Origin: Bacteroidetes bacterium UBA7662
GTDB lineage: Bacteria; Bacteroidota; Bacteroidia; UBA7662
Assembly (NCBI GenBank): GCA_002483345.1
Contig: DLHS01000016.1
Location: 21,956-85,955 of the forward strand
DNA: 64,000 bases
Direction: 5' to 3'
Shown: positions 17,987-44,377 of the stretch, one piece after another
How positions within the stretch are numbered: the stretch's first letter is position 1
Layout of the letters: the number at the start of each line of letters is the position of its first letter
Position numbers and translations under genes: made by a program
The notes under the pieces: model-generated
Told to the model about the DNA's origin: nothing
The model's database searches: none
What the model saw: the letters and a program-made list of their open reading frames with translations, nothing else

Positions 17987-19198
17987 CTAAAAAAATTGTT
18001 CATAGTCTCTGGCCAATTTATCGAAGCAGCGCTGTTCTTTCAGATATGCTATGGCCCTGGTTCCCATTTTTTCCCTTTCTTCAAATGACATACGCTGATA
18101 TCGGAGGATTTCTTTTGCAAGCAACTCAACATTCCCAAATGGCACAAAGCTCCCGCAATCGGCTTCATTAATCATCGACTGAAACCCGGAATATGAGCAA
18201 ACTATTGGTTTGCCTGCATTCATATAATCAATCCACTTATTTCTCGACAACCCGAAACGGGCAATTTCTGAATCAATAGCATCAAAACAAAGATCCACGT
18301 GCCTCAGAAAATTATTTACTAACTTTTTAGGAATGGGTGCTATAAAATGTATGTTCCCGAAATCCCTGTATTTCTCCTTATAGGTATCCAACATTGACCC
18401 GCTACCCAAAATATACGCCTCTACCTTAGCGTCTGTACCCAGACCTGCAACTGCAGCGAGCAGTGTTTCAATTGGATTATTGGGATTAATGGTCCCTGCA
18501 TAAGCAACTTTAAACGTATCCTGTGTAAAGGTATTTGAGACATAAGCGTCATCCAAAGGAACTCCGTATCCCAGGGATTCCCGTTTAATACCTTGTGGAA
18601 TACATACACACTCCTTAAAATATGGCTCTACCTCCCTAACATGTTCTATCAGATTCGGCATCGTACCAACTACCAAATCTGCCTTCCTGTATCCGAATTT
18701 TTCAAGAGTACCTAAAATCCATATAAAGGGGTTTCTACGGCTGAATCCCCCTAATTGCATGGCAGACAACGGCCAGATGTCCCGAATCTCCAGAATAAAT
18801 CTTGCCTTGTACCTGCGTGATAAAAGATATCCGGAAATTATACTCAGAATTGATAAAGACGATGCTATGACAACATCAGGCTTTGGAATTCCTTGTTTGG
18901 AGGTATAAAGGACTGCCCACTCAAAGTGAATCCAGGATAAAATACGTTGAACTGAAGAGGATTTTCTGGTCTTTAAAACCTTCAGCCAGATAGTCCGCAC
19001 CCCGGCTATATTCTCTTCCATTCTACTTCCTTCAAATACAGGCAGTTTGTCTGTTAAATGGGAAGCATTAGAGGTAAATACCGTCACATCATGGCCATTT
19101 TTCACCCATTCTTCTGCCAAATAAAAATGCCTCGTCCCGAAAAAGTACTTTTCAGGTGAGGCATATTTACAAATTAACCAGACGTTTTTACTCATCAC
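17987..19198 (-). CDS. Glycosyltransferase family 4
   Basis: 403 aa GT-B protein. C-terminal E-x7-E-like region typical of GT4. Confidence 0.75.
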   Translation of the reverse strand: MMSKNVWLICKYASPEKYFFGTRHFYLAEEWVKNGHDVTVFTSNASHLTDKLPVFEGSRMEENIAGVRTIWLKVLKTRKSSSVQRILSWIHFEWAVLYTSKQGIPKPDVVIASSLSILSIISGYLLSRRYKARFILEIRDIWPLSAMQLGGFSRRNPFIWILGTLEKFGYRKADLVVGTMPNLIEHVREVEPYFKECVCIPQGIKRESLGYGVPLDDAYVSNTFTQDTFKVAYAGTINPNNPIETLLAAVAGLGTDAKVEAYILGSGSMLDTYKEKYRDFGNIHFIAPIPKKLVNNFLRHVDLCFDAIDSEIARFGLSRNKWIDYMNAGKPIVCSYSGFQSMINEADCGSFVPFGNVELLAKEILRYQRMSFEEREKMGTRAIAYLKEQRCFDKLARDYEQFF

Positions 19199-20304
19199 GA
19201 TTCATAAAATTCCCGGATACAGCTTGCAACATAATTAATTTGTTCCTCCGTGAGCTCAGGATAAATAGGCAGGGACAGAATTTGCGACTGATAAGACGTA
19301 GCTACCGGGAAATCTGCCGGCTGATGTCCGAGATACTGATAGGCTTTAAGATTTGGCAGGGCAGTTGGGTAGTGGATGGCCGTTTCAACCTGCTTTCTTT
19401 TAAGGAACGTCATCAGGTCATCTCTTCTTTGGGCCCGAATTACATAAAGGTGAAAGGAGTGTTTGGAGTCAGGTCTTCTTGCTGGTGTCACAATTTGCGG
19501 AATGCCTTGTAAAGCTTTGTCGTACAAACTTGCACAGCGAATCCTTGCCTCTGTCCAATCGAGTATGTAAGGTAATTTTGCCGAAAGGATGGCTGCCTGC
19601 AAACCATCTAACCGGCTGTTGATTCCTTCAATCTGATGTTCATGTTTTTGGAGTGCCCCGTGTCGTGCATACATTTTGCATTTTTCAGCCAATTCGGCAT
19701 TGTTGGTAAGTATGCATCCTGCATCGCCATAGGCCCCCAGATTTTTACCAGGGTAAAAGCTGAAAGAAGCGGCAATACCAAAACTACCCACTCGTTTTCC
19801 CCCAAGCTCCGAAAAATGTGATTGTGCACAGTCTTCAATAACAGGAATACCATATTTATCTGCAATTGCGCAAATAGCTGTAATGTTAGCCGCCTGTCCT
19901 TGCAGATGTACCGGAATAATTGCTTTGGTCCGAGGGGTTATCCTTGCCTCAAGCATCGTTTCATCCATGCTATAATAAACAGGATCTATATCAACGAAAA
20001 CAGGCTTGGCACCTGTTTGGGAAATGGTTTCTGAAGAAGAAATCCAGCTGTTCGCCACGGTAATTACTTCGTCACCGTTCCCGATACCCAACATTTTCAT
20101 AATAATGTACAGAGAATCAGTACCATTGGCAACTGAAATACAATGCTTGATACCATAAAGGGATGAAAAGGCAGCTTCAAAATCTGTAACTGGTTTACCT
20201 CCAATAAAAGCTGTGTTTTCAATAACGTCAGAAATAGCGCTGTCTATTTCTTTCTTTATAGAATAATACTGTGCTTTTAAATCAACAAAAGGAACTTTTT
20301 GCAT
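19195..20304 (-). CDS. DegT-family aminotransferase (WbpE-like, UDP-2-acetamido-3-amino-2,3-dideoxy-hexuronate forming)
   Basis: VPFVDLKAQYYSIKKEIDSAI...CISVANGTDSLYI is a DegT/WbpE signature. Operon context with WbpD-like and WbpB-like genes. Confidence 0.8.
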   Translation of the reverse strand: MQKVPFVDLKAQYYSIKKEIDSAISDVIENTAFIGGKPVTDFEAAFSSLYGIKHCISVANGTDSLYIIMKMLGIGNGDEVITVANSWISSSETISQTGAKPVFVDIDPVYYSMDETMLEARITPRTKAIIPVHLQGQAANITAICAIADKYGIPVIEDCAQSHFSELGGKRVGSFGIAASFSFYPGKNLGAYGDAGCILTNNAELAEKCKMYARHGALQKHEHQIEGINSRLDGLQAAILSAKLPYILDWTEARIRCASLYDKALQGIPQIVTPARRPDSKHSFHLYVIRAQRRDDLMTFLKRKQVETAIHYPTALPNLKAYQYLGHQPADFPVATSYQSQILSLPIYPELTEEQINYVASCIREFYES

Positions 20305-20309
20305 ATAAG

Positions 20310-20765
20310 TTATTTAATTTTTTTGGCAGGATTTCCTGCATAAACTCCTGGCTGATGAATATCTTTTGTAACTACTGCCCCGGCACCAATAACCACATTA
20401 TCACATATGGTAACAGGAAGTATCGTTGCATTACTGCCAATGCTCACCTGATTCCCTATACGTGTTGACTTCCACAAGGTCTTGTCGCCTCTTGCCGGAC
20501 CACCTTTTGCAAAAAGGTCATTGATAAACATGACTCCATGACCGATAAAACAATCATCGCCAATATTAACCAGCTCACAAATAAATGAATGTGACTGGAT
20601 TTTAGTACGATGACCTATGATCACGTCTTTCTGGATCTCTACGAAAGGGCCAACAAAACAAGCATCTCCAATGGTACAGCCATATATATTAACAGGTTCA
20701 ACGATTTTGACTGATGAGCCAAACTGAACGTCTTTGATGGCAGAAGTATATAATGTAGGGCTCAT
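20310..20765 (-). CDS. Hexapeptide-repeat N-acetyltransferase (WbpD-like)
   Basis: 151 aa left-handed beta-helix protein. Adjacent to the WbpB/WbpE homologues. Confidence 0.7.
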   Translation of the reverse strand: MSPTLYTSAIKDVQFGSSVKIVEPVNIYGCTIGDACFVGPFVEIQKDVIIGHRTKIQSHSFICELVNIGDDCFIGHGVMFINDLFAKGGPARGDKTLWKSTRIGNQVSIGSNATILPVTICDNVVIGAGAVVTKDIHQPGVYAGNPAKKIK

Positions 20766-21778
20766 GACGCATTTTGTTTAACCGATTGATAAATCTTATC
20801 AATGATTTCAACAGTTTTCAGTCCCTCAAAAGAATTGGTAGAAATTGTGCTTCCATTGTTCAGAACATCTATTACATTTTCATATACCTTATCATGATTT
20901 GACATGGAACCCTGGTACTTACCATAGTTATTTGCCGTATTTCCAACAGGCAAATCTTTAAATTCAAATCCATCAATGTTCTGGTATTCCAACTCATTCA
21001 GATACTGACCTCCGATTTTTACGGTTCCTTTTTCCGCAAAAATGGTCAGTGATCCTTCCATATTTTTGCCATAGCTGTTAACAGTGTAATTTACAGTACC
21101 TATGGCACCGTTGTAGAACTGCATCACAACTGCGCCTGTGTCTTCAAATTCAATCACACCTTCATGGGCATAATTACCCATAAAAGCATGTACTTGTTTT
21201 ACATCACCCACTATCCAATAAAGTAAATCAATAAAATGGCTGAACTGAGTGTACAGCGTTCCGCCATCAAGTGCTTTAGTTCCTTTCCAGGAATTTTCGT
21301 AATAATCAAAGTTCCTGTTCCAGAAACAGCTGAGCTGAACACTGTAAATCTTACCCATTATACCCTCATCAATGGCCTTCTTGACTGCAGCAACCGGTGG
21401 ATTAAATCTGTTCTGTTTTATGGCAAACAAGCGTTTGTTATTTTTTTCCGCAGTTTTAATCATTTCACCACAATCATAAACACTGATTGCCATAGGTTTT
21501 TCACATAAGACATGATATCCTGCATTCAATGCTGCAATGGCGTGCTGAGCATGGAGCCCGTTAGGGCTGCTTATGGTCACAACATCTACATCGGGTTTTG
21601 CAGTCAGGAGTTCTTCTATCGAAAAAAACACCCGGGCATCATATTTCTTGCCGAGAGAATTAGCCTTTTCAGGTTCTATATCGCATACTGCCACTAACTC
21701 CCCTAGTCTTGCTATATGTTCGGCATGGCGTTGTGCAATCCGTCCACAACCAACAATTGCAAATTTAATTTTTTTCAT
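20762..21778 (-). CDS. Gfo/Idh/MocA-family oxidoreductase (WbpB-like UDP-GlcNAcA 3-dehydrogenase)
   Basis: KFAIVGCGRIAQRHAEHI N-terminal Rossmann of the Gfo/Idh/MocA family. 338 aa. Confidence 0.8.
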   Translation of the reverse strand: MKKIKFAIVGCGRIAQRHAEHIARLGELVAVCDIEPEKANSLGKKYDARVFFSIEELLTAKPDVDVVTISSPNGLHAQHAIAALNAGYHVLCEKPMAISVYDCGEMIKTAEKNNKRLFAIKQNRFNPPVAAVKKAIDEGIMGKIYSVQLSCFWNRNFDYYENSWKGTKALDGGTLYTQFSHFIDLLYWIVGDVKQVHAFMGNYAHEGVIEFEDTGAVVMQFYNGAIGTVNYTVNSYGKNMEGSLTIFAEKGTVKIGGQYLNELEYQNIDGFEFKDLPVGNTANNYGKYQGSMSNHDKVYENVIDVLNNGSTISTNSFEGLKTVEIIDKIYQSVKQNAS

Positions 21779-22905
21779 ATACTGGGCTTTTCAAGGTATA
21801 AATTAAGGTAGGTCTTGGCAATTTGAGTCCATGAGAATGGTGCGACCGCCTGAACAGCTTCCCTACTTGCCGTTTCGAAATTGTCAGCTATTTTTTTGAT
21901 AGCTTCAATACTCTCGTTCATATTGTTTGGTTGTACCGGAATTGCAAAGCTACTCTTTTCAAAATAACCATCTATTCCCTGCCCTGCAGTATGTATAACA
22001 GGTAAACCCTGACTCAGCGCCTCCAAATAAACCAAACCAAATGTTTCAAGCTTACTGATCATGACAAAAATATCATGTTCTCCATAAAGCGCCCGCATGG
22101 CAGTGGCTCCTTCAACCTTTCCGACAAATTTCACAAAACTAAAGTCTTCTTGCTTTAAAGCCTTTAAAACACTTTCATGACCATCTCCGCCCCCTCCGGC
22201 AAGCGTGAGTGTTACAGGACGTTCTCCAGATAGTGCTTTTATCACGCTAAGAAGAAGTAAAATGTTTTTATTGAAGGTAAAATCACCTACGTACAATATC
22301 CTCAATGGATTATGGGGTACAGGCCGGGATTCCTGATTTTCAAACCAATCAGGAGTTAATCCGTTTGGTATCACAGTCGCATTCAAAATACGCTCCTTCA
22401 GTTGCCCGGCAATATATTTATCCGCAACCTGCTTCCGATACGACGGTGTAACAAATATGCACTGCCTGGCATTTGACAGAATATTTTGTCCATGTCCTCT
22501 CAGATGAATCATATATTTAAAAAACATATTTACATCTGTATTCCTGACTGCTGTAATATATGGGATTGAAAATTGCTGCTTTAATTTCAAGGCAACACCC
22601 CCGTCACTGAATAAGAAGTGAGCATGGATGATGTCTATTCCTTTTATTTCCACTTTGGACAGAACATCCTCATAAATGGTATTGATTTTTGATTTGTAAA
22701 GTATACGGTGTTTTGGCTCAAGAATATGGGCATAAATAACAACTGTATCCGGTACATTAGGGATATCGTACTTCCCAACTTCTGCTGCTGTCCTGACAGG
22801 TACATAAATGGTTTGACGGATTCCCATTTGTGCAAGCGACAGAAAAAGTTCTTTGTACAGCTTTTGTCTGGAATAATCGGAGCACAAATGAAGCACATGT
22901 ATCAT
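21775..22905 (-). CDS. Glycosyltransferase family 4
   Basis: 376 aa GT-B protein. Overlapping start and stop with neighbours. Confidence 0.75.
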   Translation of the reverse strand: MIHVLHLCSDYSRQKLYKELFLSLAQMGIRQTIYVPVRTAAEVGKYDIPNVPDTVVIYAHILEPKHRILYKSKINTIYEDVLSKVEIKGIDIIHAHFLFSDGGVALKLKQQFSIPYITAVRNTDVNMFFKYMIHLRGHGQNILSNARQCIFVTPSYRKQVADKYIAGQLKERILNATVIPNGLTPDWFENQESRPVPHNPLRILYVGDFTFNKNILLLLSVIKALSGERPVTLTLAGGGGDGHESVLKALKQEDFSFVKFVGKVEGATAMRALYGEHDIFVMISKLETFGLVYLEALSQGLPVIHTAGQGIDGYFEKSSFAIPVQPNNMNESIEAIKKIADNFETASREAVQAVAPFSWTQIAKTYLNLYLEKPSI

Positions 22906-24032
22906 CTGGAGTAATAGCCCTTTTCTCTTAGTTTATTTACAAAAGACTTTAGCTTTTGTACTCTTTCAAAATTATTGGGGTAATCTCTGAACGTTTTAGG
23001 AGGCAGAGCCATGATAGCATCAAAAGATGCTTCATTTAACTCAAATTTCTTGATAACAAAATCCTTGTCCTGCCTGAAGAGTTTTTCATCATAACCAGGC
23101 AATTCCATTTGTTTCAGCGCATCCTCCCGGCTTATCTGTCCCGACTTAATCAAATCTGATAAATGAGCTTTGCGTTTATCTATTCCAAATTTCCGGGGCA
23201 GAATATAACCCTGAAAAAATCTTGTATAGACCGACTCATAGTGTTTACCTCCGTAATAAACCCAGCCAAGCTCAGATTGAAGAATCTCCATCACGGCATC
23301 CTTCTTATAATCTACATAGTTTAATATTGAAATTACTTTAATTCGTTTTACAATATTCCACCAGAACAAATCAAAGAAAGTGTATTTGGGATATCGGTTC
23401 AATTTAGCTGTCCCGAAAATCTTTTGAATTGACTTAATATACTTCCAATCACTGTGTCCATATGCCCATCCGGGTACACTAATGGATTCTGCCGCGAAAT
23501 TCATTCCATTTATAATATACTTGATTCCCCTCTTATTAGCCTCCCTGAACAGCAAGGCATTGATGGCATGATCTGTCGGGATTTCACCATCCGGTGTGGA
23601 AGCCTTTAAAAATGAAAGCTGCAAATCTTTAAATTCTTCCCAATCAATGACATAAGTATATAAGTCAATGCCCAGGTGATCCAGTGTCTTTTCTATATTA
23701 CTTACAGCTAATTCAGAATTCCATCCGTTATCAAAGTGAATGGCCAGGGGCCGGATGCCCAGTTGTTTGGTTAAATAGGCCACATAGGTGCTGTCAACAC
23801 CTCCGCTCACGCCAATGATACAATCGTATTCCTTCCCGTTACCGGATGCCTTTATTTTTTCTATCAGTATGCTGAGTTTCTGATCAGCCTCCTGTCCGCT
23901 AAATACCCTTCTATGGAGTTCGCTGTTATACCTCAGACAATGATTGCAGATTCCCTTGCTGTCAAATGTAATGTCCGGATCAGAAGTATCCATTATACAC
24001 TGGGTACATATTTTATAGGCGAGATCTTTCAT
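22902..24032 (-). CDS. N-acetyl sugar amidotransferase (WbpG/WbuX/PseA-like PP-loop ATPase)
   Basis: N-terminal Cys cluster (CTQC...CNHC) and PP-loop IIGVSGGVDSTYVAYL. 376 aa. Immediately followed by HisH/HisF paralogs as in wbpG-hisF-hisH and wbuXYZ clusters. Confidence 0.8.
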   Translation of the reverse strand: MKDLAYKICTQCIMDTSDPDITFDSKGICNHCLRYNSELHRRVFSGQEADQKLSILIEKIKASGNGKEYDCIIGVSGGVDSTYVAYLTKQLGIRPLAIHFDNGWNSELAVSNIEKTLDHLGIDLYTYVIDWEEFKDLQLSFLKASTPDGEIPTDHAINALLFREANKRGIKYIINGMNFAAESISVPGWAYGHSDWKYIKSIQKIFGTAKLNRYPKYTFFDLFWWNIVKRIKVISILNYVDYKKDAVMEILQSELGWVYYGGKHYESVYTRFFQGYILPRKFGIDKRKAHLSDLIKSGQISREDALKQMELPGYDEKLFRQDKDFVIKKFELNEASFDAIMALPPKTFRDYPNNFERVQKLKSFVNKLREKGYYSR

Positions 24033-24784
24033 AGCGAATTTAGATTTGCAATTTCATCCTGAGTGGGGTAGTTTATCAAAACAGCCCTGTGTTTTCCTTT
24101 ATATACAAAGAAGCTGCCAGCTGCCACTGAAGAAGCTTTCCCAATTTTGAGTGCATCAGCAATGTGAGAAATATTACCTGCCCCGCCACTGGCTACAATT
24201 GGCACATTTACGGCATTGGCAACACTTTTAGTAAGCTCCAGATCAAAACCAGACATACTTCCTTCCTTATCAACAGACTGAATAATGATTTCTCCTACTC
24301 CGGCTGCAACTACCTGTCTGGCAAAATCTTCCGGTGTCCATTTGTGTTTAACGGTACCGCTTTTGCTGTACACCTGATAGGAACCAAAAAAAGACTTTTT
24401 GGCATCTATGGAGACTACGATGCTTTGATTGCCATAAATGGAAGCGGCCTTTGCAAGTAATTCAAAATCGAAGGCAGCAGAATTCATAATAACTTTTTCA
24501 ACTCCCAGATCAAAAATCCTGCGTATCTGCTCAATATTCCTGATCCCCCCCCCATAACCAACCGGCATGAAACATTCACTTACAATATCTTTTATCCAGG
24601 CATAGTTGGGCTCTCTTTGTTGCGTACTGGCTTCAATATCACATAATACCAATTCATCAACCTCTTTTTCGTTGAATATCCTGACAGCATTGATCGGATC
24701 TCCAATGTAAACAGGGTTCTTGAAATTAACAGTCTTCACCAATCCCTTCCCTTTGAGCAACAATACCGGTATAAGTCTTATCAT
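24029..24784 (-). CDS. HisF-like imidazole glycerol phosphate synthase cyclase subunit paralog (WbuZ-like)
   Basis: MIRLIPVLLLKGKGLVKTVNF matches the HisF N-terminus. ATG at 24784 sits 2 nt after the hisH-like stop. The upstream in-frame Met at 24862 would overlap. Confidence 0.85.
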   Translation of the reverse strand: MIRLIPVLLLKGKGLVKTVNFKNPVYIGDPINAVRIFNEKEVDELVLCDIEASTQQREPNYAWIKDIVSECFMPVGYGGGIRNIEQIRRIFDLGVEKVIMNSAAFDFELLAKAASIYGNQSIVVSIDAKKSFFGSYQVYSKSGTVKHKWTPEDFARQVVAAGVGEIIIQSVDKEGSMSGFDLELTKSVANAVNVPIVASGGAGNISHIADALKIGKASSVAAGSFFVYKGKHRAVLINYPTQDEIANLNSL

Positions 24785-24786
24785 TT

Positions 24787-25404
24787 TCACAACTCTAAAA
24801 AATTCTGGAAAAGGCGCATCCCAAACTTGTGACTCTTTTCCGGATGAAACTGTACTGCCCAAATATTATCCTTATGCAAACCCGCAGCAAATGGAGTCTT
24901 GTATGCAGCTGTACATAATACATCCGAAGGCTGGTTACTGTGCATATAGTAGGAATGAACAAAATAAAACCTGGGATTCTCCGGCAGATTCTTTAGCAAT
25001 TCCGTTTCATTTTCAAATTGAATGGTATTCCACCCCATATGGGGTATCCTTATGTTCTCTTCATTCGGAAGTTTCGAGAAATGAAGTACTTCGGCATCAA
25101 AAAAACCAAATCCAGGCATAGTCCCTTCCTCTGACCTTTGGGTCAACAACTGCGCCCCCAAACAAATACCCAGTAAAGGCCGCTCTTTCTGCTGCACATA
25201 CGCTTTCACAGCTTCTACTAAATTATTGTCTGACAGCATCTTCATCCCATGATCAAAATGCCCTACACCTGGCAGTATTAATTTATCCGCACCCAATATT
25301 TCGTCAGGACTGCTGACAATTTTACTTGTCCCCCCCAGCCTGCGAATCATGTTAACAATAGAGCCTATGTTTCCCGCTCCGTAGTCAATGATACTTATCA
25401 TCAA
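24787..25404 (-). CDS. HisH-like glutamine amidotransferase paralog (WbuY-like)
   Basis: IIDYGAGNIGS, GVGHF and PHMGWN are class-I GATase motifs. Confidence 0.85.
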   Translation of the reverse strand: MMISIIDYGAGNIGSIVNMIRRLGGTSKIVSSPDEILGADKLILPGVGHFDHGMKMLSDNNLVEAVKAYVQQKERPLLGICLGAQLLTQRSEEGTMPGFGFFDAEVLHFSKLPNEENIRIPHMGWNTIQFENETELLKNLPENPRFYFVHSYYMHSNQPSDVLCTAAYKTPFAAGLHKDNIWAVQFHPEKSHKFGMRLFQNFLEL

Positions 25405-26570
25405 AGCAGCTCTTCTATATCATTCATTCCAAAGTCTTTCAAAACAACCGTTTTACCAGTTCTGTATGCTTCAACCCCAGCGAGCGCTACCACCACTGAT
25501 CTGGCAGCGTCGAATACTGTACAATCTAACTTACCCTTTCCCTTGACAGTATTCATAAAGTTTTCTGCAGAATTTCTGACCGCCATGGAGTGTTCATAAA
25601 GTCTGATGGGATAATATCCAATATTGTATTGGGCATTATAAGGGTATGACCGCATCAGCCATTCAAAAAGTTTGGAGTAGGTAGCGATGACTGTTTCTTT
25701 TATCCATGCCAGTTTCCTGCCTTGCATGGTATTTCTGATCGGAGTAGCAAATATTTCAAAACTCCCGTCTTTGTCAAACAGCATATTGTTGAAGATGCTC
25801 TTATCATTACCATAAACCTGAACCGTATGGTCTTGCGGTCTTCCGGCACCGAAGGCAGTTACTACTTTCCCAATTATACCTGACCTGAACTTAAGCAGGA
25901 CTACATTTAAATCACTCTCCGGATATTCAGGGAAACAAATATTGTTTGCCATGGCTGATACCTCTACAATCTCATCATCAACAACCCACCTGAGAAGGTC
26001 GACGAAGTGAATCCCTGAATAAATGAGTGGGGTAGCGTTCTCAACCAACCGCCAGTTATCGTATTCAAAAGCTCGTTTGGTAAGGTTGTGTACATAGTAT
26101 CCTTCTATATATCCAACTTTCCCAAGCACACCACTGCTGACGATATCCTTGATTTTACGGTGTATAGGCAAACACCTCATCTGGTGTTGAACGCCGACTA
26201 CAATGTCAGGATGTGCTTTTACACATTTCAGAATATCTCTTATCCCTTCGACAGAATCGGTCAGAGGTTTTTCGCACAATACATGTTTACCATGTTCCAC
26301 ACTCCGGCAGATATATTTTGCATGGGTGCTATCTGGTGAAGAAACAACCACGATATCAATTCCACTTTCAAGAAATGCATCAAAATCCGATGTGAGGAAT
26401 AGGTCTGCCCTATGATTCCTTGCCCGTTCAAAGGCTGGCTCTTTTATGTCGAATACACTGATTACAGAACAGTCATCAAACGATTCAAAGTGTTTGTACA
26501 GAGCCATGCCTGCTCCTCCAAAACCTACGATTCCGATGTAGTACTTTTCTTTTATCTTAATTTTATCCAT
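25401..26570 (-). CDS. Gfo/Idh/MocA-family oxidoreductase
   Basis: N-terminal IGIVGFGGAGMALYKHF Rossmann fold, with VLCEKP motif. 389 aa. Confidence 0.75.
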   Translation of the reverse strand: MDKIKIKEKYYIGIVGFGGAGMALYKHFESFDDCSVISVFDIKEPAFERARNHRADLFLTSDFDAFLESGIDIVVVSSPDSTHAKYICRSVEHGKHVLCEKPLTDSVEGIRDILKCVKAHPDIVVGVQHQMRCLPIHRKIKDIVSSGVLGKVGYIEGYYVHNLTKRAFEYDNWRLVENATPLIYSGIHFVDLLRWVVDDEIVEVSAMANNICFPEYPESDLNVVLLKFRSGIIGKVVTAFGAGRPQDHTVQVYGNDKSIFNNMLFDKDGSFEIFATPIRNTMQGRKLAWIKETVIATYSKLFEWLMRSYPYNAQYNIGYYPIRLYEHSMAVRNSAENFMNTVKGKGKLDCTVFDAARSVVVALAGVEAYRTGKTVVLKDFGMNDIEELL

Positions 26571-26595
26571 AGGACAATAGGTAATAAAATTGAAC

Positions 26596-27537: not shown

Positions 27538-27544
27538 GGTAGTC

Positions 27545-32807: not shown

Positions 32808-33460
32808 AGAGCTTTTTTGCCTGTAAATACAGAATTACAGTCAACAATATCGGTGTATTGATCAATTTTAACCAAACTGGCAAAGCTAAATAGGTTAGTA
32901 TAAAACTCTACCGTCTTGGTTTGAAAGTTAGACAGATCCTCCGAGGTCTTCTCTACAAGAAAAACAGATCCCCCGGGCTTTAAAACCCTTTCGATTTCTG
33001 AAACAGTCTTCGTGAGGACAGCAGAATCTGTAATGGATCCAAAGACCAGACATATAAACACGGAATCTACACTATTTTCCTCAAGAGGTATAATACCCTC
33101 CGCCATCAGTCTGTATTCAACATTAGCGGCCGCCGGTGCCAGATCAATCAGTTTTTTAATCGGGTCTACACCAATAACCTGCGCCTGGAAAAACTCAGCC
33201 AGTTTTCCTGAAAATCTACCTGGTCCACAACCGAAATCCAGAATGATATTTCCGGAACCATCAGAAAGAATTTTTTGGTACAACGGAAACAAAAAGCCGA
33301 TTTGAAACGCTGTAACTTTCTCCAATTCTTCTTCGGTATGACCAAGATGAATCACAGATCTCACCCCATAGTTCTTGGCTCTGTCTTCCCAATATTCAAT
33401 CTGAGAGTTGTACTTTTTAGGGAAGAACTTATTCCATACCCGTTTAATTAAACTAATCAT
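32804..33460 (-). CDS. Class I SAM-dependent methyltransferase
   Basis: ILDFGCGPGRFSGKLAEF is motif I. 218 aa. Confidence 0.75.
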   Translation of the reverse strand: MISLIKRVWNKFFPKKYNSQIEYWEDRAKNYGVRSVIHLGHTEEELEKVTAFQIGFLFPLYQKILSDGSGNIILDFGCGPGRFSGKLAEFFQAQVIGVDPIKKLIDLAPAAANVEYRLMAEGIIPLEENSVDSVFICLVFGSITDSAVLTKTVSEIERVLKPGGSVFLVEKTSEDLSNFQTKTVEFYTNLFSFASLVKIDQYTDIVDCNSVFTGKKAL

Positions 33461-34596: not shown

Positions 34597-34749
34597 AGTA
34601 TTTCCAAAAATTATAGTAGGGTGTAATTAGAATTGATTTAAGAGCGGGCAAATCCTTATGCTCCAGAAATCTACCGGTACGCCAGGCAATGAAAAAATTC
34701 TTGGCGTGGGTTTTAAAAGAGGAGGGCGGTTGCTATTATCGATTAAAGT

Positions 34750-38231: not shown

Positions 38232-39240
38232 GTTTGAAATATTGAATATAAAAGGCAACGGTTTCGGCCAGATAGGCATCAAATTGCTGTCTGGGTTCCC
38301 AGTTCAAATCCTGTTTAAGTTTATCTGCATCAATGGCATATCGCAAATCATGACCTTTACGATCGGTGACAAAGGTAATGAGTTCTAAGGCATTACCATC
38401 TTTCCTGCCCAACTGAGTATCGACAATGCTGCAGAGCTTGTGAACCAGGTCTATGTTTTTCCATTCGTTGTTTCCCCCTACATTGTAGGTCTCGCCATTT
38501 TTACCCTTATGGAAAATAACATTCATTGCCGACACATGATCACCCACAAAAAGCCAGTCCCGGATGTTTTCTCCTTTGCCGTAAACGGGAATCGGTTTGC
38601 GTTCCAAAATCTGCCTGATAACAACCGGAATTAACTTCTCCGGATATTGGTTGGGGCCATAATTATTGGAACAGTTGCTTAAAACAATAGGAAGGCCGAA
38701 TGTGTGATGGTAAGCTCTGACAAAATGATCCGATGATGCTTTCGAAGCCGAATAGGGAGAACGGGGATCGTAAGGTGTTTCTTCCGTGAAAAAGCCCTCC
38801 GCGCCCAAACTTCCATACACCTCATCTGTGGAAATGTGATAAAAGAGGTATTTTTCAGGATCTGCATGTTCCCCCCATGCCTTTAAGGCGGCATTGAGTA
38901 AAGTGACCGTTCCAACTACATTCGTTGTCACAAATTCCATGGGATTTTCAATAGAACGATCCACATGGGATTCTGCAGCCAGGTGCATGACGCCATCTAT
39001 TTGATATTCCGTAAATAATTGCTTAACCAGACTGGCATCACAAATATCCCCCTGCACAAAGGTAAAATTTGGCTTCCCCTCCAGATCGCGGATATTATCC
39101 TGATTCCCCGCATAAGTCAGCTTATCGAGCACAATAATCCGGTAATCAGGATAGGTATTCACCATAAAACGGGCTGCATGAGATCCTATAAATCCTGCAG
39201 CGCCTGTCATTAAAATGTTTCTTTTAAAATTCATATGCAT
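38221..39240 (-). CDS. rfbB: dTDP-glucose 4,6-dehydratase
   Basis: ILMTGAAGFIGSHAARFMV...YRIIVLDKLTYAGN and an extended SDR with YxxxK. Start at the ATG at 39240 (MHMNFK), overlapping the regulator stop by 1 nt. The track GTG at 39252 is not preferred. Confidence 0.9.
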   Translation of the reverse strand: MHMNFKRNILMTGAAGFIGSHAARFMVNTYPDYRIIVLDKLTYAGNQDNIRDLEGKPNFTFVQGDICDASLVKQLFTEYQIDGVMHLAAESHVDRSIENPMEFVTTNVVGTVTLLNAALKAWGEHADPEKYLFYHISTDEVYGSLGAEGFFTEETPYDPRSPYSASKASSDHFVRAYHHTFGLPIVLSNCSNNYGPNQYPEKLIPVVIRQILERKPIPVYGKGENIRDWLFVGDHVSAMNVIFHKGKNGETYNVGGNNEWKNIDLVHKLCSIVDTQLGRKDGNALELITFVTDRKGHDLRYAIDADKLKQDLNWEPRQQFDAYLAETVAFYIQYFKHAK

Positions 39241-39767
39241 TATTTTGACCACAAAACGATGTGTGCCTGTTTTTCAAAATCATAACCGAAACCATCCTTG
39301 TCAGCTGGCTGTATTGAATATCGGATTTTTCTTTGAATCAACGCTTCTGCTTTGATGACAAGCTGTTCCAGGTAAACCAGGTCAATGTCGCCAACAAGCC
39401 GAAGATCTATGATGCCGGAATCGTGACCCTGGGCATAATCTCCGGTTACAACAGCCAGCTGAAGATTCCCAATTCTTTGGAGCACATTCTCAATAATCTG
39501 GTCGAATCCAAGATATTTCGAGACGATTTTTTTGATCTCATGGTAGATAGGATTCTCGACATCTGCTTTGTACAAGATGGTATTACCTACCGGTTCTGCC
39601 CTTAACAAGCCGGCATCCGTCAGCCTGTTGAGCTCAACACGAACAGAATTCGTGCTCTCGCCAAATTCATCTGCCAGCGAACGCAAATACGCTGCATTTG
39701 AACTATTACTGAAGAACTTCAGCAACAATTTTATGCGGGTTTTAGAAGTAATAAGAGAATCTAACAT
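39240..39767 (-). CDS. wHTH (ArsR-like) DNA-binding protein fused to a nucleotidyltransferase-like domain, first gene of the minus-strand operon
   Basis: N-terminal RIKLLLKFFS...AAYLRSLADEFGESTNSVRVELNRLTDAGLL is a winged helix. C-terminal LAVVTGDYAQGHDSGIIDLRLVGD resembles the GS...D.D minimal nucleotidyltransferase motif. Confidence 0.45.
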   Translation of the reverse strand: MLDSLITSKTRIKLLLKFFSNSSNAAYLRSLADEFGESTNSVRVELNRLTDAGLLRAEPVGNTILYKADVENPIYHEIKKIVSKYLGFDQIIENVLQRIGNLQLAVVTGDYAQGHDSGIIDLRLVGDIDLVYLEQLVIKAEALIQRKIRYSIQPADKDGFGYDFEKQAHIVLWSK

Positions 39768-40291
39768 GTTATTCCGTGCTTCGTATTTGTTCTGTGTACA
39801 TCAGAGACAAATCTGGCAATGCGTATACTGATAATGATTTTGCTAAAATTTTAAACGATCTGTCCTGATAAATATTTGCCCGGCAGCTTAAACTGATGGA
39901 GATACTTTTCAGAAAACATGCTGTTTAGGCCTACAATTGCACAGCTTCGCTTGGTAAGTCCCAGGCCAAAAGGACAGAGTGAGTAATAATTTTACTCAAA
40001 GAAACGACAACAACAGCAATCCACCAAAAATTTGGATTGAATAAATCCGGAAGATGACTGTTAGACGAGGGTCTGAAAGCAGCATCTTTCCGGCACCCGG
40101 TTTGAGCCAGGCGCTGTGATTTTATACCATTAAAAAGGAAAAAGACCTGTCGGATTAATGATTCCCTGCGTCTGAATCTCTTACAGACAGATAAGCATCA
40201 ATGGATTTAAGAGAAACTTCACGCTATCGGTTGTCTGATTTTCTCTGTCCCGGATTGGATTCTCAGGAGCATCCGGCATAATTTGTCAGGG

Positions 40292-41299
40292 TCAGCCGGC
40301 TTTGTAGATGCGTTCTATGATATCTACCACTTTCATTCCTTCAAGTGCATTGGTGGTAACATCTGATTTCCCGTTAAGTACGTCTATGACGTTTTCAATG
40401 ATGAGGTGATGGTTCTGTGCGGAACCTTTGAAAGCCCCGTAGTCATTACCTGGATTTGTCGGGGCAAGTTCCGGTAGTACATAATCCCGGATATGGCAAT
40501 ACTCAACTTTGTCCATGTATTGTCCGCCTACCCTGACAGAACCTTTTTCCCCGATAATGGTAATACTGCTTTCAAGATTTTTATCCCATACAGCTGTAGA
40601 AAAACTAAGAACACCGCTTCCACCGGAGCAAAAATCGAAAGTCACGAGGCCTGAATCGTTGAACTCTGTCAATCCGGCATGATTAAAATTATAAAACCGG
40701 CTGTGGATGTGCTCAATATCTCCGAAAAGCCAGAACATGATATCTATGAAATGGGAAAACTGAGTATAAAGAACTCCTCCATCAAACTTTTGAGTACCCC
40801 TCCAGCTTCCAGGCAGGTAATATCTCTGATCTCTGTTCCAGTAACAATTCAACTGCAACATATAGAGTTTTCCCAATCTCCCTTCCTCTACTATGTTCTT
40901 CAGCCAAACAGAGGGAGGAGAATACCGGTTTTGCATAACCACAAAAATCCTGCGGTCAACCTGCGTTGATAATGAAACTATCTCCTCTGCATCTGCTTTG
41001 CTCAGCGTCATGGGTTTTTCAATCACCACATGTTTTCCGGCTTTCAATGCAGCGATAGCCAGACTGGCATGCAAACCGTTGGGCGCAGCAATGTTAATCA
41101 CATCTATGTCCAGACCTGCTTCCAGACAAGCGGTCAGATCCTGAAATACACGAACACCCTGCTTCCTGAATAATTCCGTTTTATCGGAATCGGGATCAAC
41201 CACAGCTGTGAGTGCTGCCAACGGGTTTTTATTTATTATTTCTGCGTGCCGTTTCCCAATGTGGCCACCACCAACAACAGCGAAATTTATGCATTTCAT
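40292..41299 (-). CDS. Gfo/Idh/MocA-family oxidoreductase (WbpB-like), second copy
   Basis: MKCINFAVVGGGHIGKRHAEII. ATG at 41299 avoids overlap with the upstream acetyltransferase. 335 aa. Confidence 0.8.
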   Translation of the reverse strand: MKCINFAVVGGGHIGKRHAEIINKNPLAALTAVVDPDSDKTELFRKQGVRVFQDLTACLEAGLDIDVINIAAPNGLHASLAIAALKAGKHVVIEKPMTLSKADAEEIVSLSTQVDRRIFVVMQNRYSPPSVWLKNIVEEGRLGKLYMLQLNCYWNRDQRYYLPGSWRGTQKFDGGVLYTQFSHFIDIMFWLFGDIEHIHSRFYNFNHAGLTEFNDSGLVTFDFCSGGSGVLSFSTAVWDKNLESSITIIGEKGSVRVGGQYMDKVEYCHIRDYVLPELAPTNPGNDYGAFKGSAQNHHLIIENVIDVLNGKSDVTTNALEGMKVVDIIERIYKAG

Positions 41300-41300
41300 G

Positions 41301-41891
41301 TTATGATTTCCTTTTAACCGCGCCTGCAATCATTTCGTATTGCTGTCCGCTTTCAGGGCAAATGGCCATGCCAGATGCATCAAAAACAAGTTTGTGGCCA
41401 TACTCACTTACCCAGCCACTTTGTCTGGCAGGATTCCCTACCATCAATGCATAGGCCGGCACCTCCCTGGTTATTACTGCACCTGCTCCAATCAATGCAA
41501 ACTGATGAATGTCATGGCCGCATACAATAGTAGCATTGGCTCCGATGCTGGCTCCCTTCTCTACTTTGGTTTTGACATACGCTTCCTTCCTGCTGACGGC
41601 ACTGCGAGGGTTTATAATGTTGGTGAAAACACAGGAAGGTCCCAAAAAAACATCGTCCTCACAGCTGACACCGGTATACAGACTTACATTGTTCTGAACC
41701 TTTACGTTGTTACCCAGTACTACCCCGGGAGAAACAACTACGTTCTGTCCAATATTGCAATTCTGACCTATAATGCTGCCGGTCATGACATGGCAGAAAT
41801 GCCATATACGGGTTCCGGCACCTATTTCACAGCCCTCATCTATGACAGCTGTTTCGTGTGCAAAATATAATTTGGAATCAGAGTCTGGCAT
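41301..41891 (-). CDS. Hexapeptide-repeat N-acetyltransferase (WbpD-like), second copy
   Basis: 196 aa left-handed beta-helix protein with the same size and architecture as WbpD. Sits between WbpA-like and WbpB-like genes. Confidence 0.75.
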   Translation of the reverse strand: MPDSDSKLYFAHETAVIDEGCEIGAGTRIWHFCHVMTGSIIGQNCNIGQNVVVSPGVVLGNNVKVQNNVSLYTGVSCEDDVFLGPSCVFTNIINPRSAVSRKEAYVKTKVEKGASIGANATIVCGHDIHQFALIGAGAVITREVPAYALMVGNPARQSGWVSEYGHKLVFDASGMAICPESGQQYEMIAGAVKRKS

Positions 41892-43173
41892 CCGCTAAAT
41901 GGCGTGGAATAAAGGCTTTGGTGTCGAAAATAACGGCCCCTTGTGCCTTCATCTTTTCAAAATCTATGCTTTTAAAGCTTTCATGAGAGACAGCCACAAT
42001 AACCGACTGGTACTTTTTATCAACCAACTGCTCTAAAAGATCCAGCTTATACTCGTGTTTAACTTCATCCGCATTTGCCCAGGGGTCATAAACATCTACC
42101 TGCAGGCCAAACTGAACCAATTCATTGTAAATATCGATAACCTTCGTGTTCCGGACATCCGGACAGTTTTCCTTGAAGGTTACTCCCAGAATAAGGGAGT
42201 GCGCCCCTTTGATGGTATGTCCTTTCTGGATCATCAACTTTACGACCTTGTTTGCCACAAACATGCCCATATTGTCATTCACCCTTCTCCCGGAAAGAAT
42301 AACCTGAGGGTGATAGCCCAATGACTCTGCCTTGTGCGCAAGGTAATATGGATCAACACCTATGCAGTGACCGCCAACCAGGCCTGGTTTGTACTTCAGG
42401 AAATTCCACTTGGTAGCGGCTGCATCCAGCACATCCTGGGTGTCGATTCCCATTCTGTCGAAAATAAGCGCAAGTTCATTCACAAAAGAGATGTTCACAT
42501 CCCTTTGTGCGTTCTCAATTGCCTTCGATGCTTCAGCAACCCGGATTGAACTGGCCATGAAAGTTCCTGCGGTAATAATAGAGGCATATAATTTATTCAC
42601 CAGCACGGCTATTTCAGGGGTAGAGCCGGATGTAACTTTTTTAATCTTTGTAAGCGTATTTACTTTGTCGCCCGGATTTATTCTTTCAGGGGAGTAGCCG
42701 CAAAAGAAATCCTGATTGAACCGGAGGCCGGAGAACTTTTCGAGTATAGGCACACAGTCTTCTTCTGTACAGCCGGGGTAAACAGTCGACTCATAAACCA
42801 CGACATCTCCTTTGGAAAGAACTTTGCCAAGCATTTCAGAAGCTTTCAACAGAGGCTTCAAGTCAGGTGCTTTAAAGCTATCAATAGGTGTCGGAACGGT
42901 AACGATGTAAAAATTTCTGTCTTTCAGAAAGGCGGTCTCATGGGAGAAACGTAATCCTGTTTTTGAGTTTTCTCCGGATACAAATACTGCTTTCAATTCT
43001 TCAGGGTCAGCTTCCAGGGTACGGTCTTCTCCCCGTCGAAGCTCTCCGATACGGTCTTCGTTGATATCAAAACCAAGTACATCGTATTTTTTGGCAAATT
43101 CGATTGCCAACGGCAACCCTACATAACCCAACCCAATTATCGCAATTTTCGGCTCAAAAGAATCAAAATCCAT
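41878..43173 (-). CDS. UDP-N-acetyl-D-hexosamine 6-dehydrogenase (WbpA/TviB/WecC family)
   Basis: KIAIIGLGYVGLPLAIEFA NAD-binding N-terminus. 431 aa nucleotide-sugar dehydrogenase. Confidence 0.85.
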   Translation of the reverse strand: MDFDSFEPKIAIIGLGYVGLPLAIEFAKKYDVLGFDINEDRIGELRRGEDRTLEADPEELKAVFVSGENSKTGLRFSHETAFLKDRNFYIVTVPTPIDSFKAPDLKPLLKASEMLGKVLSKGDVVVYESTVYPGCTEEDCVPILEKFSGLRFNQDFFCGYSPERINPGDKVNTLTKIKKVTSGSTPEIAVLVNKLYASIITAGTFMASSIRVAEASKAIENAQRDVNISFVNELALIFDRMGIDTQDVLDAAATKWNFLKYKPGLVGGHCIGVDPYYLAHKAESLGYHPQVILSGRRVNDNMGMFVANKVVKLMIQKGHTIKGAHSLILGVTFKENCPDVRNTKVIDIYNELVQFGLQVDVYDPWANADEVKHEYKLDLLEQLVDKKYQSVIVAVSHESFKSIDFEKMKAQGAVIFDTKAFIPRHLADARL

Positions 43174-43226
43174 TTTCTACTTATTGGCTGCTAAAATAAC
43201 TAATCCTCTTTGATATCCCGAATTCA

Positions 43227-43234
43227 TATCTTTG
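43227..43234 (+). promoter_or_regulatory. Candidate Bacteroidota -7 box TATCTTTG (TAnnTTTG consensus) for the wbpE-ugd-uxs plus-strand unit
   Basis: Located 15 nt upstream of the ATG at 43250, inside the 76-bp divergent region between wbpA-like (-) and wbpE-like (+). Confidence 0.3.
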
Positions 43235-43249
43235 TGCAAAAACAATTTC

Positions 43250-44377
43250 ATGCGTCAGCCTCTTCAGATGGTCGATTTAAAGGCCCAATACGAGCTTATA
43301 CAAACTGAAATCGACCAGGCTGTACTGAACGTAGTACGTTCGACGGCCTATATAAACGGCCCGGAAGTAAAACAGTTTCAGGAAGGGTTGCAGAAATACC
43401 TGGGGGTAGCTCACGTAATTCCGTGTGCCAACGGCACCGACGCCCTTCAGATAGCCATGATGGCTTTGGGTCTTCAGCCCGGAGACGAAGTTATCACGGC
43501 CAGTTTTACCTACGTGGCGACGGCTGAAGTAATCGCACTGCTGAAGCTTACACCTGTTTTGGTTGATGTTGATCCTGTCACCTTCAATATCAACCCTGCG
43601 GAAGTTGAAAAAGCCATCACTCCGCGTACAAAAGCGATTGTCCCGGTACATCTTTTTGGTCAATGCGCCAATATGGAGGCCTTGCTGGCAATCGCTGAAA
43701 AACACAATTTGTTTGTGATTGAGGATACTGCCCAGGCCATCGGTGCCGAATATACTTTTTCGGACGGCCGTAAAGCCAAGGCGGGCACCATGGGTACTGT
43801 TGGTACCACCAGTTTTTTTCCGTCCAAAAATCTGGGTTGTTACGGGGATGGCGGCGCAATCATGACGCAGGATGAACCTCTGGCCAAAAAAATCAGGACG
43901 ATAGCCAATCACGGGCAATCGGTTCAGTACTATCACGATGAAATCGGGGTCAACTCCCGTCTTGACAGTATTCAGGCGGCTGTTTTAAACGTGAAACTGC
44001 CCCATCTCGACAGATACAATGCCTCCAGAAAAGCAGCAGCGGATTTTTATAATCAGGCATTTTCAGGCAATTCCAAATACACGACTCCTGGCCTTGATTC
44101 AAAGTCAACACATGTTTTCCATCAATACACCCTACAATTACACGGTATTGATCGTCAGGGGCTTCGTGACCATCTGGCTGCCAGGCAGATTCCAAGCATG
44201 ATATATTACCCCGTACCCCTGCATATACAGAAGGCCTACAGCAGTGACCGATATCAGCCAGGTGCATTTCCGGTAACCGAAAAATTATGTGCCTCTGTAC
44301 TCTCACTACCCATGCATTCTGAGCTGACATCGGAGCAATTGAACCATATTGTTGCAGGAGTGCTCTCCTATCATTAA
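43250..44377 (+). CDS. DegT-family aminotransferase (WbpE-like), second copy
   Basis: MVDLKAQYELIQTEIDQAV...VIPCANGTDALQIAM. The ATG at 43250 was chosen because the track start at 43232 is a TTG codon. Confidence 0.85.
   Translation: MRQPLQMVDLKAQYELIQTEIDQAVLNVVRSTAYINGPEVKQFQEGLQKYLGVAHVIPCANGTDALQIAMMALGLQPGDEVITASFTYVATAEVIALLKLTPVLVDVDPVTFNINPAEVEKAITPRTKAIVPVHLFGQCANMEALLAIAEKHNLFVIEDTAQAIGAEYTFSDGRKAKAGTMGTVGTTSFFPSKNLGCYGDGGAIMTQDEPLAKKIRTIANHGQSVQYYHDEIGVNSRLDSIQAAVLNVKLPHLDRYNASRKAAADFYNQAFSGNSKYTTPGLDSKSTHVFHQYTLQLHGIDRQGLRDHLAARQIPSMIYYPVPLHIQKAYSSDRYQPGAFPVTEKLCASVLSLPMHSELTSEQLNHIVAGVLSYH

Follow-up and report, generated by a model that had tools for sequence, protein, structure and literature searches.

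Two diverged sets of WbpB/WbpD/WbpE-like genes in one Bacteroidota polysaccharide locus, one of them beside an acetamidino amidotransferase module

We analysed 64,000 nucleotides of Bacteroidetes bacterium UBA7662 (assembly GCA_002483345.1, contig DLHS01000016.1, positions 21,956 to 85,955 of the forward strand); this whole 64-kb stretch is referred to as the window, and all positions are counted from its first letter. The region from about 12.5 to 47 kb is one Wzx/Wzy-type surface-polysaccharide locus of a Bacteroidota bacterium, with best matches in Chitinophagaceae and Sphingobacteriaceae. It includes an XrtF-type exosortase, and the best genome matches of one of its oxidoreductases (that of Set 2, at most 65% identity) are in Sediminibacterium, Segetibacter and Sphingobacteriaceae. 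The locus encodes twice a trio of enzymes resembling WbpB (oxidoreductase), WbpD (acetyltransferase) and WbpE (aminotransferase), once as Set 1 (19195-21778) and once as Set 2 (40292-44377), the latter together with a WbpA-like 6-dehydrogenase. The two sets are two anciently diverged lineages of this trio, each widespread in Bacteroidota. Genes were called from a list of open reading frames (ORFs) combined with NCBIfam scans and with Pfam scans of all sizeable ORFs.

Results

Gene content of the two sets

The genes that an earlier note on this DNA had assigned to the two sets are all intact ORFs with exactly the coordinates used here, and both sets are WbpB/WbpD/WbpE-like by homology, as that note had proposed, the match of the Set 1 acetyltransferase to WlbB being weak. 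The Set 2 oxidoreductase (40292-41329, minus strand; the real start is probably the ATG at 41299) is a Gfo/Idh/MocA protein of the WlbA/WbpB family of 3-dehydrogenases, matching the Protein Data Bank (PDB) entries 3q2i (193.7 bits, 33% identity), which we take to be WlbA of Chromobacterium violaceum, and 3q2k (184.1 bits, 32% identity), presumably WlbA of Bordetella pertussis; the WbpB entries scored 55-65 bits. We found 588 confirmed relatives of this protein in species-representative genomes, the best 80 of which are 57-65% identical to it and include proteins of Chitinophagaceae, Sphingobacteriaceae, Flavobacteriales and Bacteroidales. The 196-aa Set 2 acetyltransferase (41301-41891, minus strand) is an N-acetyltransferase of the left-handed beta-helix (LbH) fold and of the WlbB/WbpD type, matched over residues 11-191 by 3mqg (E = 2.7e-61), which we take to be WlbB of Bordetella petrii, and its homologues (59-75% identity) adjoin Set-2-type oxidoreductases in many Bacteroidota loci. 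The WbpA/TviB-like UDP-GlcNAc 6-dehydrogenase (41878-43173, minus strand) has three UDPG_MGDP_dh Pfam domains and matches the NCBIfam model NF011729 (TviB) with E = 1.8e-168; its score against this equivalog, 560.7 bits, is slightly below the curated cutoff of 592, and the NDP-sugar dehydrogenase subfamily model is passed. The aminotransferase of Set 2, a DegT-family sugar 3-aminotransferase, is transcribed divergently (43232-44377, plus strand), an orientation that is kept in two other loci, L004 and L006 (72-84% identity). With 327 bits to the WbpE structures 3nu7/3nyu vs. 255 bits to QdtB, it is specifically WbpE-like. Set 2 and WbpA make up a complete predicted pathway to UDP-2,3-diacetamido-2,3-dideoxy-glucuronic acid (UDP-GlcNAc3NAcA).

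The three genes of Set 1 all lie on the minus strand. Its Gfo/Idh/MocA oxidoreductase (20762-21778), again a WlbA/WbpB-family 3-dehydrogenase, matches 3q2i with 249.3 bits (39% identity) and 3q2k with 235.1 bits (38% identity), far above the WbpB entries at 55-65 bits. It has at least 8000 homologues at E ≤ 1e-30, and the best 119 of these other than itself are 75-80% identical and include proteins of Segetibacter and Pedobacter. The DegT/DnrJ/EryC1 aminotransferase (19195-20304; DegT, 371.7 bits) scored 297 bits against DesV, 294 against QdtB and 288 against WbpE in the PDB, and at most 170 bits against 4-aminotransferases; these scores place it in the sugar 3-aminotransferase clade, about equidistant from WbpE, QdtB and DesV and not specifically with WbpE. 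Between the two lies a gene for a 151-aa hexapeptide (LbH) acyltransferase with Hexapep Pfam domains (20310-20765), which matches structures of sugar N-acetyltransferases weakly (best 7s3u/7s43, with 1.8e-15 for 7s43; 4mzu, 1e-14; 3mqg, 5.6e-13). It is presumed to be the 3-N-acetyltransferase of Set 1, a role assigned from its fixed linkage to the oxidoreductase and aminotransferase genes. This family of 151-156-aa LbH acyltransferases has at least 8000 proteins at E ≤ 1e-10, and identities among the matches listed (P0128-P0246) are 78-85%. Their public names are 'acyltransferase', 'N-acetyltransferase', 'isoleucine patch superfamily enzyme' or, wrongly, LpxD, a pattern that suggests a systematic gap in annotation.

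Divergence and base composition of the two sets

Between Set 1 and Set 2, the aminotransferases are 40% identical, the acetyltransferases 32% (over 122 aa) and the oxidoreductases 45%, and a recent duplication was rejected on these identities of 32-45%; in line with the earlier note, the paralogues are diverged. In a neighbour-joining tree, the Set-1-type and Set-2-type oxidoreductases form two sister clades of Bacteroidota proteins with the proteobacterial WlbA pair outside, which likewise argues against a recent duplication. An alignment of both WlbA proteins with 24 Set-1-type and 20 Set-2-type sequences has 45 invariant columns, among them the glycines that bind the nucleotide and the motifs EKP, QNR and SH..D, and 13 columns are fixed differently between the two types. 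Membership of the two sets in unrelated functional clades was also rejected, for the oxidoreductases and aminotransferases; this rejection does not extend to the acetyltransferases. Both sets are intact and retain their conserved motifs, and Set-1-type and Set-2-type genes also occur together in the single loci L035, L077 and L123.

The difference in GC content that had been noticed between the sets is real, and it takes the form of a gradient across the locus, without a sharp step. Mean GC is 0.406 in Set 1 and 0.458 in Set 2; at third codon positions (GC3) the means are 0.344 (0.32-0.36, the minimum of the window) and 0.460 (0.44-0.49), respectively, compared to 0.535 in the housekeeping genes of the right flank (KdtA, LpdA, SucA/B and others). 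The codon-usage distance from this flank is largest for Set 1 (0.145), and is 0.073 for Set 2.

The acetamidino module and its association with Set 1

One gene upstream of Set 1 lies a contiguous module of three genes on the minus strand (22902-25404), which, like the third Gfo/Idh/MocA gene described below and the weakness of the match between the Set 1 acetyltransferase and WlbB, was absent from the earlier note. It encodes a WbuX/WbpG-type N-acetyl sugar amidotransferase (22902..24032; TIGR03573, 304.9 bits vs. a cutoff of 203.2), a HisF2/AglZ-type cyclase subunit (24029..24862; NF038364, 349.6 bits vs. a cutoff of 310) and a HisH-type glutaminase subunit (24787..25404; TIGR01855, 222.4 bits vs. 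a cutoff of 105.4), so that all three components pass their curated cutoffs. In Methanococcus maripaludis, the acetamidino group on a ManNAc3NAmA-type sugar depends on MMP1081, a homologue of WbpG (PMC2952790).

We mapped the proteins of the window onto 80 genome loci anchored on a Set-2-type oxidoreductase and 83 anchored on a Set-1-type oxidoreductase (loci are denoted by L, proteins by P), and counted neighbours in those loci whose sequence extends 6 kb or more to either side of the anchor, that is, 32 Set-1-type and 53 Set-2-type loci. An acyltransferase of the same type was present within 6 kb of the anchor in 26/32 Set-1-type and 26/53 Set-2-type loci, and an aminotransferase of the same type in 29/32 and 22/53, respectively; the short acyltransferase gene is usually directly 3' of the Set-1-type oxidoreductase gene. 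WbuX was present within 6 kb in 16 of the 32 Set-1-type loci vs. 2 of the 53 Set-2-type loci (Fisher p = 7e-7), and, conversely, WbpA in 0 of the 32 Set-1-type loci vs. 15 of the 53 Set-2-type loci (Fisher p = 7e-4). Set 1 is thus tied both physically and statistically to the WbuX/HisH/HisF acetamidino amidotransferase system. Set-2-type genes often adjoin RmlB, Ugd, a short-chain dehydrogenase/reductase (SDR) epimerase and KdtA, and the array Set-2-type aminotransferase, Ugd, epimerase, Set-2-type acetyltransferase, Set-2-type oxidoreductase, WbpA, RmlB is recurrent in Flavobacteriales-type loci (e.g., L023, L049, L056, L076 and L079).

In L082 (Segetibacter sp. 3557_3), L144 and L147, a NusG/UpxY-like gene is directly followed by genes for a Set-1-type oxidoreductase and a short acyltransferase. 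L082 has few further genes related to glycans and no aminotransferase gene within 10 kb, so a large polysaccharide locus is not a prerequisite for the oxidoreductase/acyltransferase pair.

A conserved head and a conserved tail around a variable middle

Read from right to left, that is, along the minus strand, the locus starts with the divergent Set 2 aminotransferase, with Ugd and an SDR epimerase behind it on the plus strand. Next on the minus strand come WbpA, the WlbB-like acetyltransferase and the oxidoreductase of Set 2, a small winged-helix-like ORF, RmlB, Wza and Wzz; then a WecE-like aminotransferase, a methyltransferase, Wzx, a glycosyltransferase of family 4 (GT4), Wzy, an MBOAT protein, an unmatched ORF and a third Gfo/Idh/MocA protein; and then HisH, HisF2, WbuX, a GT4 enzyme, the Set 1 oxidoreductase, acyltransferase and aminotransferase, a second GT4 enzyme in this block, a PglC-like and a PglD-like protein, XrtF, a 126-aa ORF, and PglE-like and PglF-like proteins. 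Set 2 lies in the conserved head of this locus and Set 1 in its conserved tail block.

Both parts recur in GCA_036787895.1, where the 191-kb contig DAIQOK010000002.1 carries a Set 2 locus (L006) adjacent to a Set 1 locus (L164, whose Set 1 acyltransferase homologue is P0164). In the head, the Set 2 aminotransferase (84% identity, again divergent), WbpA (75%), acetyltransferase (73%), oxidoreductase (64%), small ORF (84%), RmlB (69%) and Wza/Wzz (29-39%) are shared. In the tail, identities are 75% for HisH, 82% for HisF2, 88% for WbuX, 66% for the GT4 enzyme that follows, 80%, 82% and 79% for the Set 1 oxidoreductase, acyltransferase and aminotransferase, 72% for the second GT4 enzyme, 73% for PglC, 63% for PglD, 45% for XrtF, 39% for the 126-aa ORF, 72% for PglE and 90% for PglF; the outer flank of the tail is shared as well (PMT_2-like protein, 57%; GtrA-like protein, 86%). 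The middle is non-homologous and contains AsnB-like genes and different glycosyltransferases. Because the head and the tail are kept in a diverged genome around another middle, Set 1 belongs to a conserved flank rather than to the variable middle, and the shared two-set layout argues against a recent replacement cassette. In this relative, GC3 is 0.35-0.42 in the Set 2 genes (0.53 in the outer aminotransferase gene) and 0.38-0.40 in the Set 1 genes; the difference in GC between the sets of the window is thus no fixed trait of the two lineages. Outside this relative, the ten-gene order HisH-HisF2-WbuX-GT4-oxidoreductase-acyltransferase-aminotransferase-GT4-PglC-PglD is also found in L103, and the order from the Set 1 oxidoreductase through PglF in L090, where homologues of WbuX and HisF2 come first, together with a WbpI-type epimerase.

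Substrate of the Set-1-type enzymes

The Set-1-type oxidoreductase gene of L001 is overlapped at its start by an Epimerase_2 gene, whose product matches the Thermus UDP-GlcNAc3NAcA 2-epimerase 8sxv at 6e-109 and Escherichia coli WecB-type enzymes, such as 1f6d, at about 1e-40. UDP-GlcNAc3NAcA 2-epimerases differ from UDP-GlcNAc 2-epimerases in having Trp307 for Arg, Ala18 for Leu/Met and Tyr96 for His/Gln (PMC10622841), and Ala18, Tyr96 and Trp307 are all present in the L001 enzyme. These signature residues split the epimerases of all mapped loci cleanly: those at least 43% identical to the L001 enzyme all have Trp307, have Ala18 except in L010 (His), and have Tyr or Phe at position 96, and those at most 36% identical have Ile/Leu/Met, Val/Leu/His/Gln and Arg at positions 18, 96 and 307 (His in L026 and L048, the most distant). 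Epimerases with the signature flank Set-1-type genes in L001, L089, L090 and L091 (in L089 the gene is partly covered, with Tyr96 and Trp307 visible) and Set-2-type genes in L003, L004, L008, L010, L039 and L055. Since both types lie beside signature epimerases, both appear to feed UDP-GlcNAc3NAcA in other genomes. In addition, a WbpA homologue is encoded directly upstream of the Set-1-type oxidoreductase in L099, and in L001 and L164 the Set 1 block is accompanied by AsnB-like genes, whose family includes WbpS, an amidotransferase of uronic acids (PMC7468200).

In the window itself, a single WbpA-like dehydrogenase and no WbpI-like 2-epimerase had been noticed before, and both observations hold. 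The second sugar dehydrogenase, next to the Set 2 aminotransferase (44399-45820, plus strand), is a UDP-glucose dehydrogenase of the Ugd/TuaD type that is 28% identical to WbpA (tblastn), so the lone WbpA, 20 kb from Set 1, presumably supplies UDP-GlcNAcA to both sets. For a WbpI-type 2-epimerase, there was no Epimerase_2 Pfam match among the scanned ORFs of the 64 kb, and tblastn with such an epimerase against all frames of the window gave nothing real. The full five-enzyme pathway to ManNAc3NAcA, the manno-configured epimer, is accordingly not complete within the window, where the WbpI-type 2-epimerase is missing, and the sugars are expected to stay gluco-configured, the default reading and one of the two options given in the earlier note.

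The third Gfo/Idh/MocA oxidoreductase (389 aa; 25401-26570, minus strand) adjoins HisH and was considered as a third WbpB. This was rejected: identity to the oxidoreductase of Set 1 is as low as 25%, and the solved structures nearest to the protein, none of which is a close relative, include no WlbA or WbpB. The syntenic relative lacks this gene, which therefore belongs to the variable middle.

Other genes of the locus

Two GT4 genes on the minus strand, both recognised by Pfam, flank Set 1. The downstream one (17987..19198) is a candidate transferase for the Set 1 sugar and is syntenic, at 43-72% identity, in L001, L085, L086, L090, L103, L105 and L164. The other (21775..22905; Glycos_transf_1) lies between WbuX and Set 1; it is 66% and 47% identical to the proteins in the corresponding position in L164 and L103, and occupies the slot that is held by the WbpI-type epimerase in L001 and L090.

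The tail continues on the minus strand (12584..17984) with genes for a PglC-like phosphoglycosyltransferase (17370-17984), a PglD-like acetyltransferase (16732-17373), the XrtF exosortase (16200-16745; TIGR04128, 101.9 bits vs. a cutoff of 90), a 126-aa membrane protein (15842-16222), a PglE-like aminotransferase (14710-15882) and a PglF/WbpM-like 4,6-dehydratase (12584-14545), in an order that is kept in L164 (39-90% identity) and in L090. XrtF and the 126-aa membrane ORF (together 15842-16745) thus lie inside the glycan locus with the PglD-like and PglE-like genes on either side, and are placed likewise in L164 and L090 (45% identity). Links of Wbp/Vim sugars to exosortase systems have been speculated on by Veith et al. 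(PMC7468200).

In the middle of the locus, an MBOAT (DltB/AlgI-like) gene and a 341-aa ORF form a pair (26596-28993, minus strand) that is probably responsible for O-acylation of the polysaccharide; the 341-aa ORF has no Pfam or NCBIfam match. A WecE-type dTDP-4-amino-4,6-dideoxyhexose aminotransferase (592 bits) and a methyltransferase (32804-34596, minus strand) are encoded along with RmlB (38221-39252, minus strand), and no RmlA, RmlC or RmlD gene was found within the 64 kb. The polymer is expected to contain a 4-amino-6-deoxy sugar, with the remaining steps encoded elsewhere. Between RmlB and Set 2, a 175-aa ORF (within 39240-40292) has faint winged-helix matches only (ArsR/GntR/PaaX, E of about 1e-3 to 1e-4). 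It adjoins RmlB in L004 and L006 as well, where it is 74-84% conserved, and is separated from Set 2 by a gap of 525 bp; it may be a regulator of the locus. Rfam detected no RNA family across the window, including this gap.

Further glycan genes are located to the left (1-12453): three genes for glycosyltransferases of family 2, one for a ManC-like nucleotidyltransferase, two for Wzy_C-like membrane proteins (2273-3709 and 8224-9471), a PMT_2-like/GtrA-like pair (9488-11343; 57-86% identical in L164) and one for a WecA-family transferase (11371-12453).

Discussion

A proposed role for each set

As it stands, the arrangement is an ordinary pathway duplication, in which a known kind of pathway, the Wbp type, is present as two old lineages. 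We favour, with moderate confidence, a locus of two such lineages in which Set 2 and WbpA form one pathway, and Set 1 uses the UDP-GlcNAcA made by WbpA and feeds a 3-acetamidino derivative. From gene content, homology, clade structure, synteny and gene-neighbour statistics, we infer the enzymatic steps, the Set 1 substrate and the acetamidino product as follows. WbpA would convert UDP-GlcNAc to UDP-GlcNAcA, which a WlbA-type oxidoreductase would turn into a 3-keto sugar, a WbpE-like DegT aminotransferase into a 3-amino sugar and a WlbB-like LbH acetyltransferase into UDP-GlcNAc3NAcA, following the steps reviewed in PMC10622841. Set 2 would run these four steps at the head of the locus, and Set 1 would repeat the last three on UDP-GlcNAcA supplied by WbpA. 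WbuX, HisH and HisF2 would then turn the di-N-acetyl product of Set 1 into a 3-acetamidino sugar, as in Pseudomonas aeruginosa O5 and M. maripaludis, the flanking GT4 enzymes would transfer it onto an initiating sugar made by PglFEDC, and Wzx, Wzy, Wzz and Wza would finish the assembly. The duplication itself would reflect a modular build of the locus, in which a head and a tail that are both conserved and self-sufficient enclose a variable middle. The link of Set 1 to WbuX/HisH/HisF sharpens the earlier suggestion, itself plausible, that the polymer contains two di-N-acyl uronic acids with different modifications.

Several observations weigh against this proposal. If both sets make one nucleotide sugar, the retention of both in two diverged genomes is unexplained, and P. 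aeruginosa O5 makes both ManNAc3NAcA and ManNAc3NAmA with one set. The target of WbuX could instead be a different N-acetyl sugar in the repeat unit, for instance the one made by PglFED. The Set 1 acetyltransferase matches WlbB (3mqg) with 52.8 bits, a weak score, and no characterised member was identified in the family of this short acyltransferase. Finally, none of the 32 Set-1-type loci has its own WbpA within 6 kb, which fits a distant WbpA and fits a non-uronic substrate too.

On that last point, Set 1 might start from UDP-GlcNAc (or from some other UDP-hexose) and make a 3-acetamido-3-deoxy sugar, e.g., GlcNAc3NAc, so that the two sets would differ in both precursor and product. The contrast with the 15 of 53 Set-2-type loci that have WbpA within 6 kb would then be accounted for, the acetyltransferase and aminotransferase of Set 1 are no closer to WlbB and WbpE than to dTDP-sugar enzymes, and the NCBIfam model of the archaeal UDP-GlcNAc 3-dehydrogenase scores 117.7 bits against Set 1 and 85.3 bits against Set 2. 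We nevertheless consider a non-uronic substrate decidedly unlikely, given that Set-1-type oxidoreductases are translationally coupled to epimerases with Ala18/Tyr96/Trp307 in L001, L090 and L091, that a WbpA homologue is directly upstream in L099, that AsnB-like genes occur with the block in L001 and L164, and that the Set 1 oxidoreductase is nearer to the UDP-GlcNAcA-specific WlbA structures than that of Set 2 is (249 vs. 194 bits). The two sets might also serve different glycoconjugates, with Set 2 as a phylum-conserved 'housekeeping' Wbp pathway, e.g., for an anchor like anionic lipopolysaccharide (A-LPS) or for a type IX secretion system (T9SS) linking sugar, and Set 1 for the serotype polysaccharide only. 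In Porphyromonas gingivalis, neither A-LPS nor the T9SS linking sugar is made without the Wbp pathway (WbpA/B/D/E; PMC4031482, PMC7468200); Set-2-type genes have representatives in Bacteroidales, Tannerella and Parabacteroides among them, and adjoin KdtA, Ugd and a conserved epimerase in Flavobacteriales; and both sets are kept together in two genomes. However, no vimA-like or vimE-like genes were found in the window, and Set 2, inside the locus near Wza and Wzz, may simply serve the same polymer; we hold such a split to be unlikely. In the one Tannerella locus that we examined, L066, a Set-2-type oxidoreductase and WbpA lie beside flippase and nonulosonic-acid genes rather than vim genes, which supports neither side.

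The earlier note had also raised a horizontally acquired replacement cassette, and a recent arrival of Set 1, with one of the sets redundant and being lost, would agree with its GC3, the lowest in the window (0.344 vs. 0.535 in housekeeping genes), and with its codon-usage distance, the largest (0.145 vs. 0.073 for Set 2). The listed Set-1-type proteins are, moreover, 75-85% identical across several Bacteroidota families, as in a mobile cassette. However, entire polysaccharide loci are usually low in GC, and here the GC content changes along a gradient; both sets are intact with conserved motifs; and GCA_036787895.1 has the head-plus-tail arrangement with diverged sequences and a similar GC3 of both sets. 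With old and widespread clades, and a layout kept in this relative at 63-90% identity, the idea of a replacement is not well supported, and we regard it as highly improbable.

Beyond the two-lineage pathway that we favour, a more speculative proposal is that the sets are sub-functionalised: the Set-1-type trio with WbuX/HisHF would be a Bacteroidota-wide 3-acetamidino route for the variable polysaccharide, and Set 2 would serve a conserved glycoconjugate, e.g., a T9SS-type anchor. We regard this as rather unlikely in its full form. As a further stretch, XrtF in the conserved block could sort proteins onto this glycan as their acceptor, in the way that the T9SS sortase uses a linking sugar made by Wbp enzymes.

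These results suggest a picture of Bacteroidota polysaccharide loci in which a variable middle lies between two conserved arms that each encode diamino-uronic-acid enzymes of their own. Judging from the homologies and gene neighbourhoods, the Set-1-type trio, a very large and highly conserved group that is annotated generically or wrongly, is probably the Bacteroidota route to acetamidino-modified diamino-uronic acids; if so, annotation and the prediction of sugars from sequence would be improved. If the sets serve different glycoconjugates, there would be a connection to type IX secretion anchoring.

Comparison with known systems

The locus for the B-band O-antigen of P. aeruginosa O5 (PAO1) combines WbpA, WbpB, WbpE, WbpD and WbpI with HisH2, HisF2 and WbpG. 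The window resembles it in the enzyme families of the 6-dehydrogenase, 3-dehydrogenase, 3-aminotransferase and 3-N-acetyltransferase (steps according to PMC10622841 and PMC7468200), and in having a WbpG/WbuX-type amidotransferase with HisH/HisF paralogues within the locus. It differs in having two sets where P. aeruginosa has one, in having no WbpI 2-epimerase, and in the Set 1 acetyltransferase, which is a short, divergent LbH protein here. The oxidoreductases differ as well: WbpB of P. aeruginosa and Thermus (3oa2, 3o9z) scored 55-65 bits, whereas those of the window are of the Bordetella/Chromobacterium WlbA type (194-249 bits).

The Wbp/Vim system of P. gingivalis and Tannerella forsythia, which makes the T9SS linking sugar, is likewise a Bacteroidota UDP-GlcNAc3NAcA pathway with the same four enzyme families (PMC4031482, PMC7468200), but its genes are scattered in P. 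gingivalis, and VimA, VimE and WbpS are not in this window. In M. maripaludis (AglXYZ/MMP1081), as is predicted here, a 2,3-diamino uronic acid goes together with a homologue of WbuX/WbpG and a protein of the HisF2/AglZ family (PMC2952790); that system is archaeal and N-linked, and has another gene order and another remaining pathway. Among solved structures, WlbA and WlbB are the best matches for both oxidoreductases and for the Set 2 acetyltransferase, with the EKP, QNR and SH..D motifs invariant in the oxidoreductases, although identity to WlbA is 32-39% and the Bacteroidota proteins form two clades of their own outside the proteobacterial pair.

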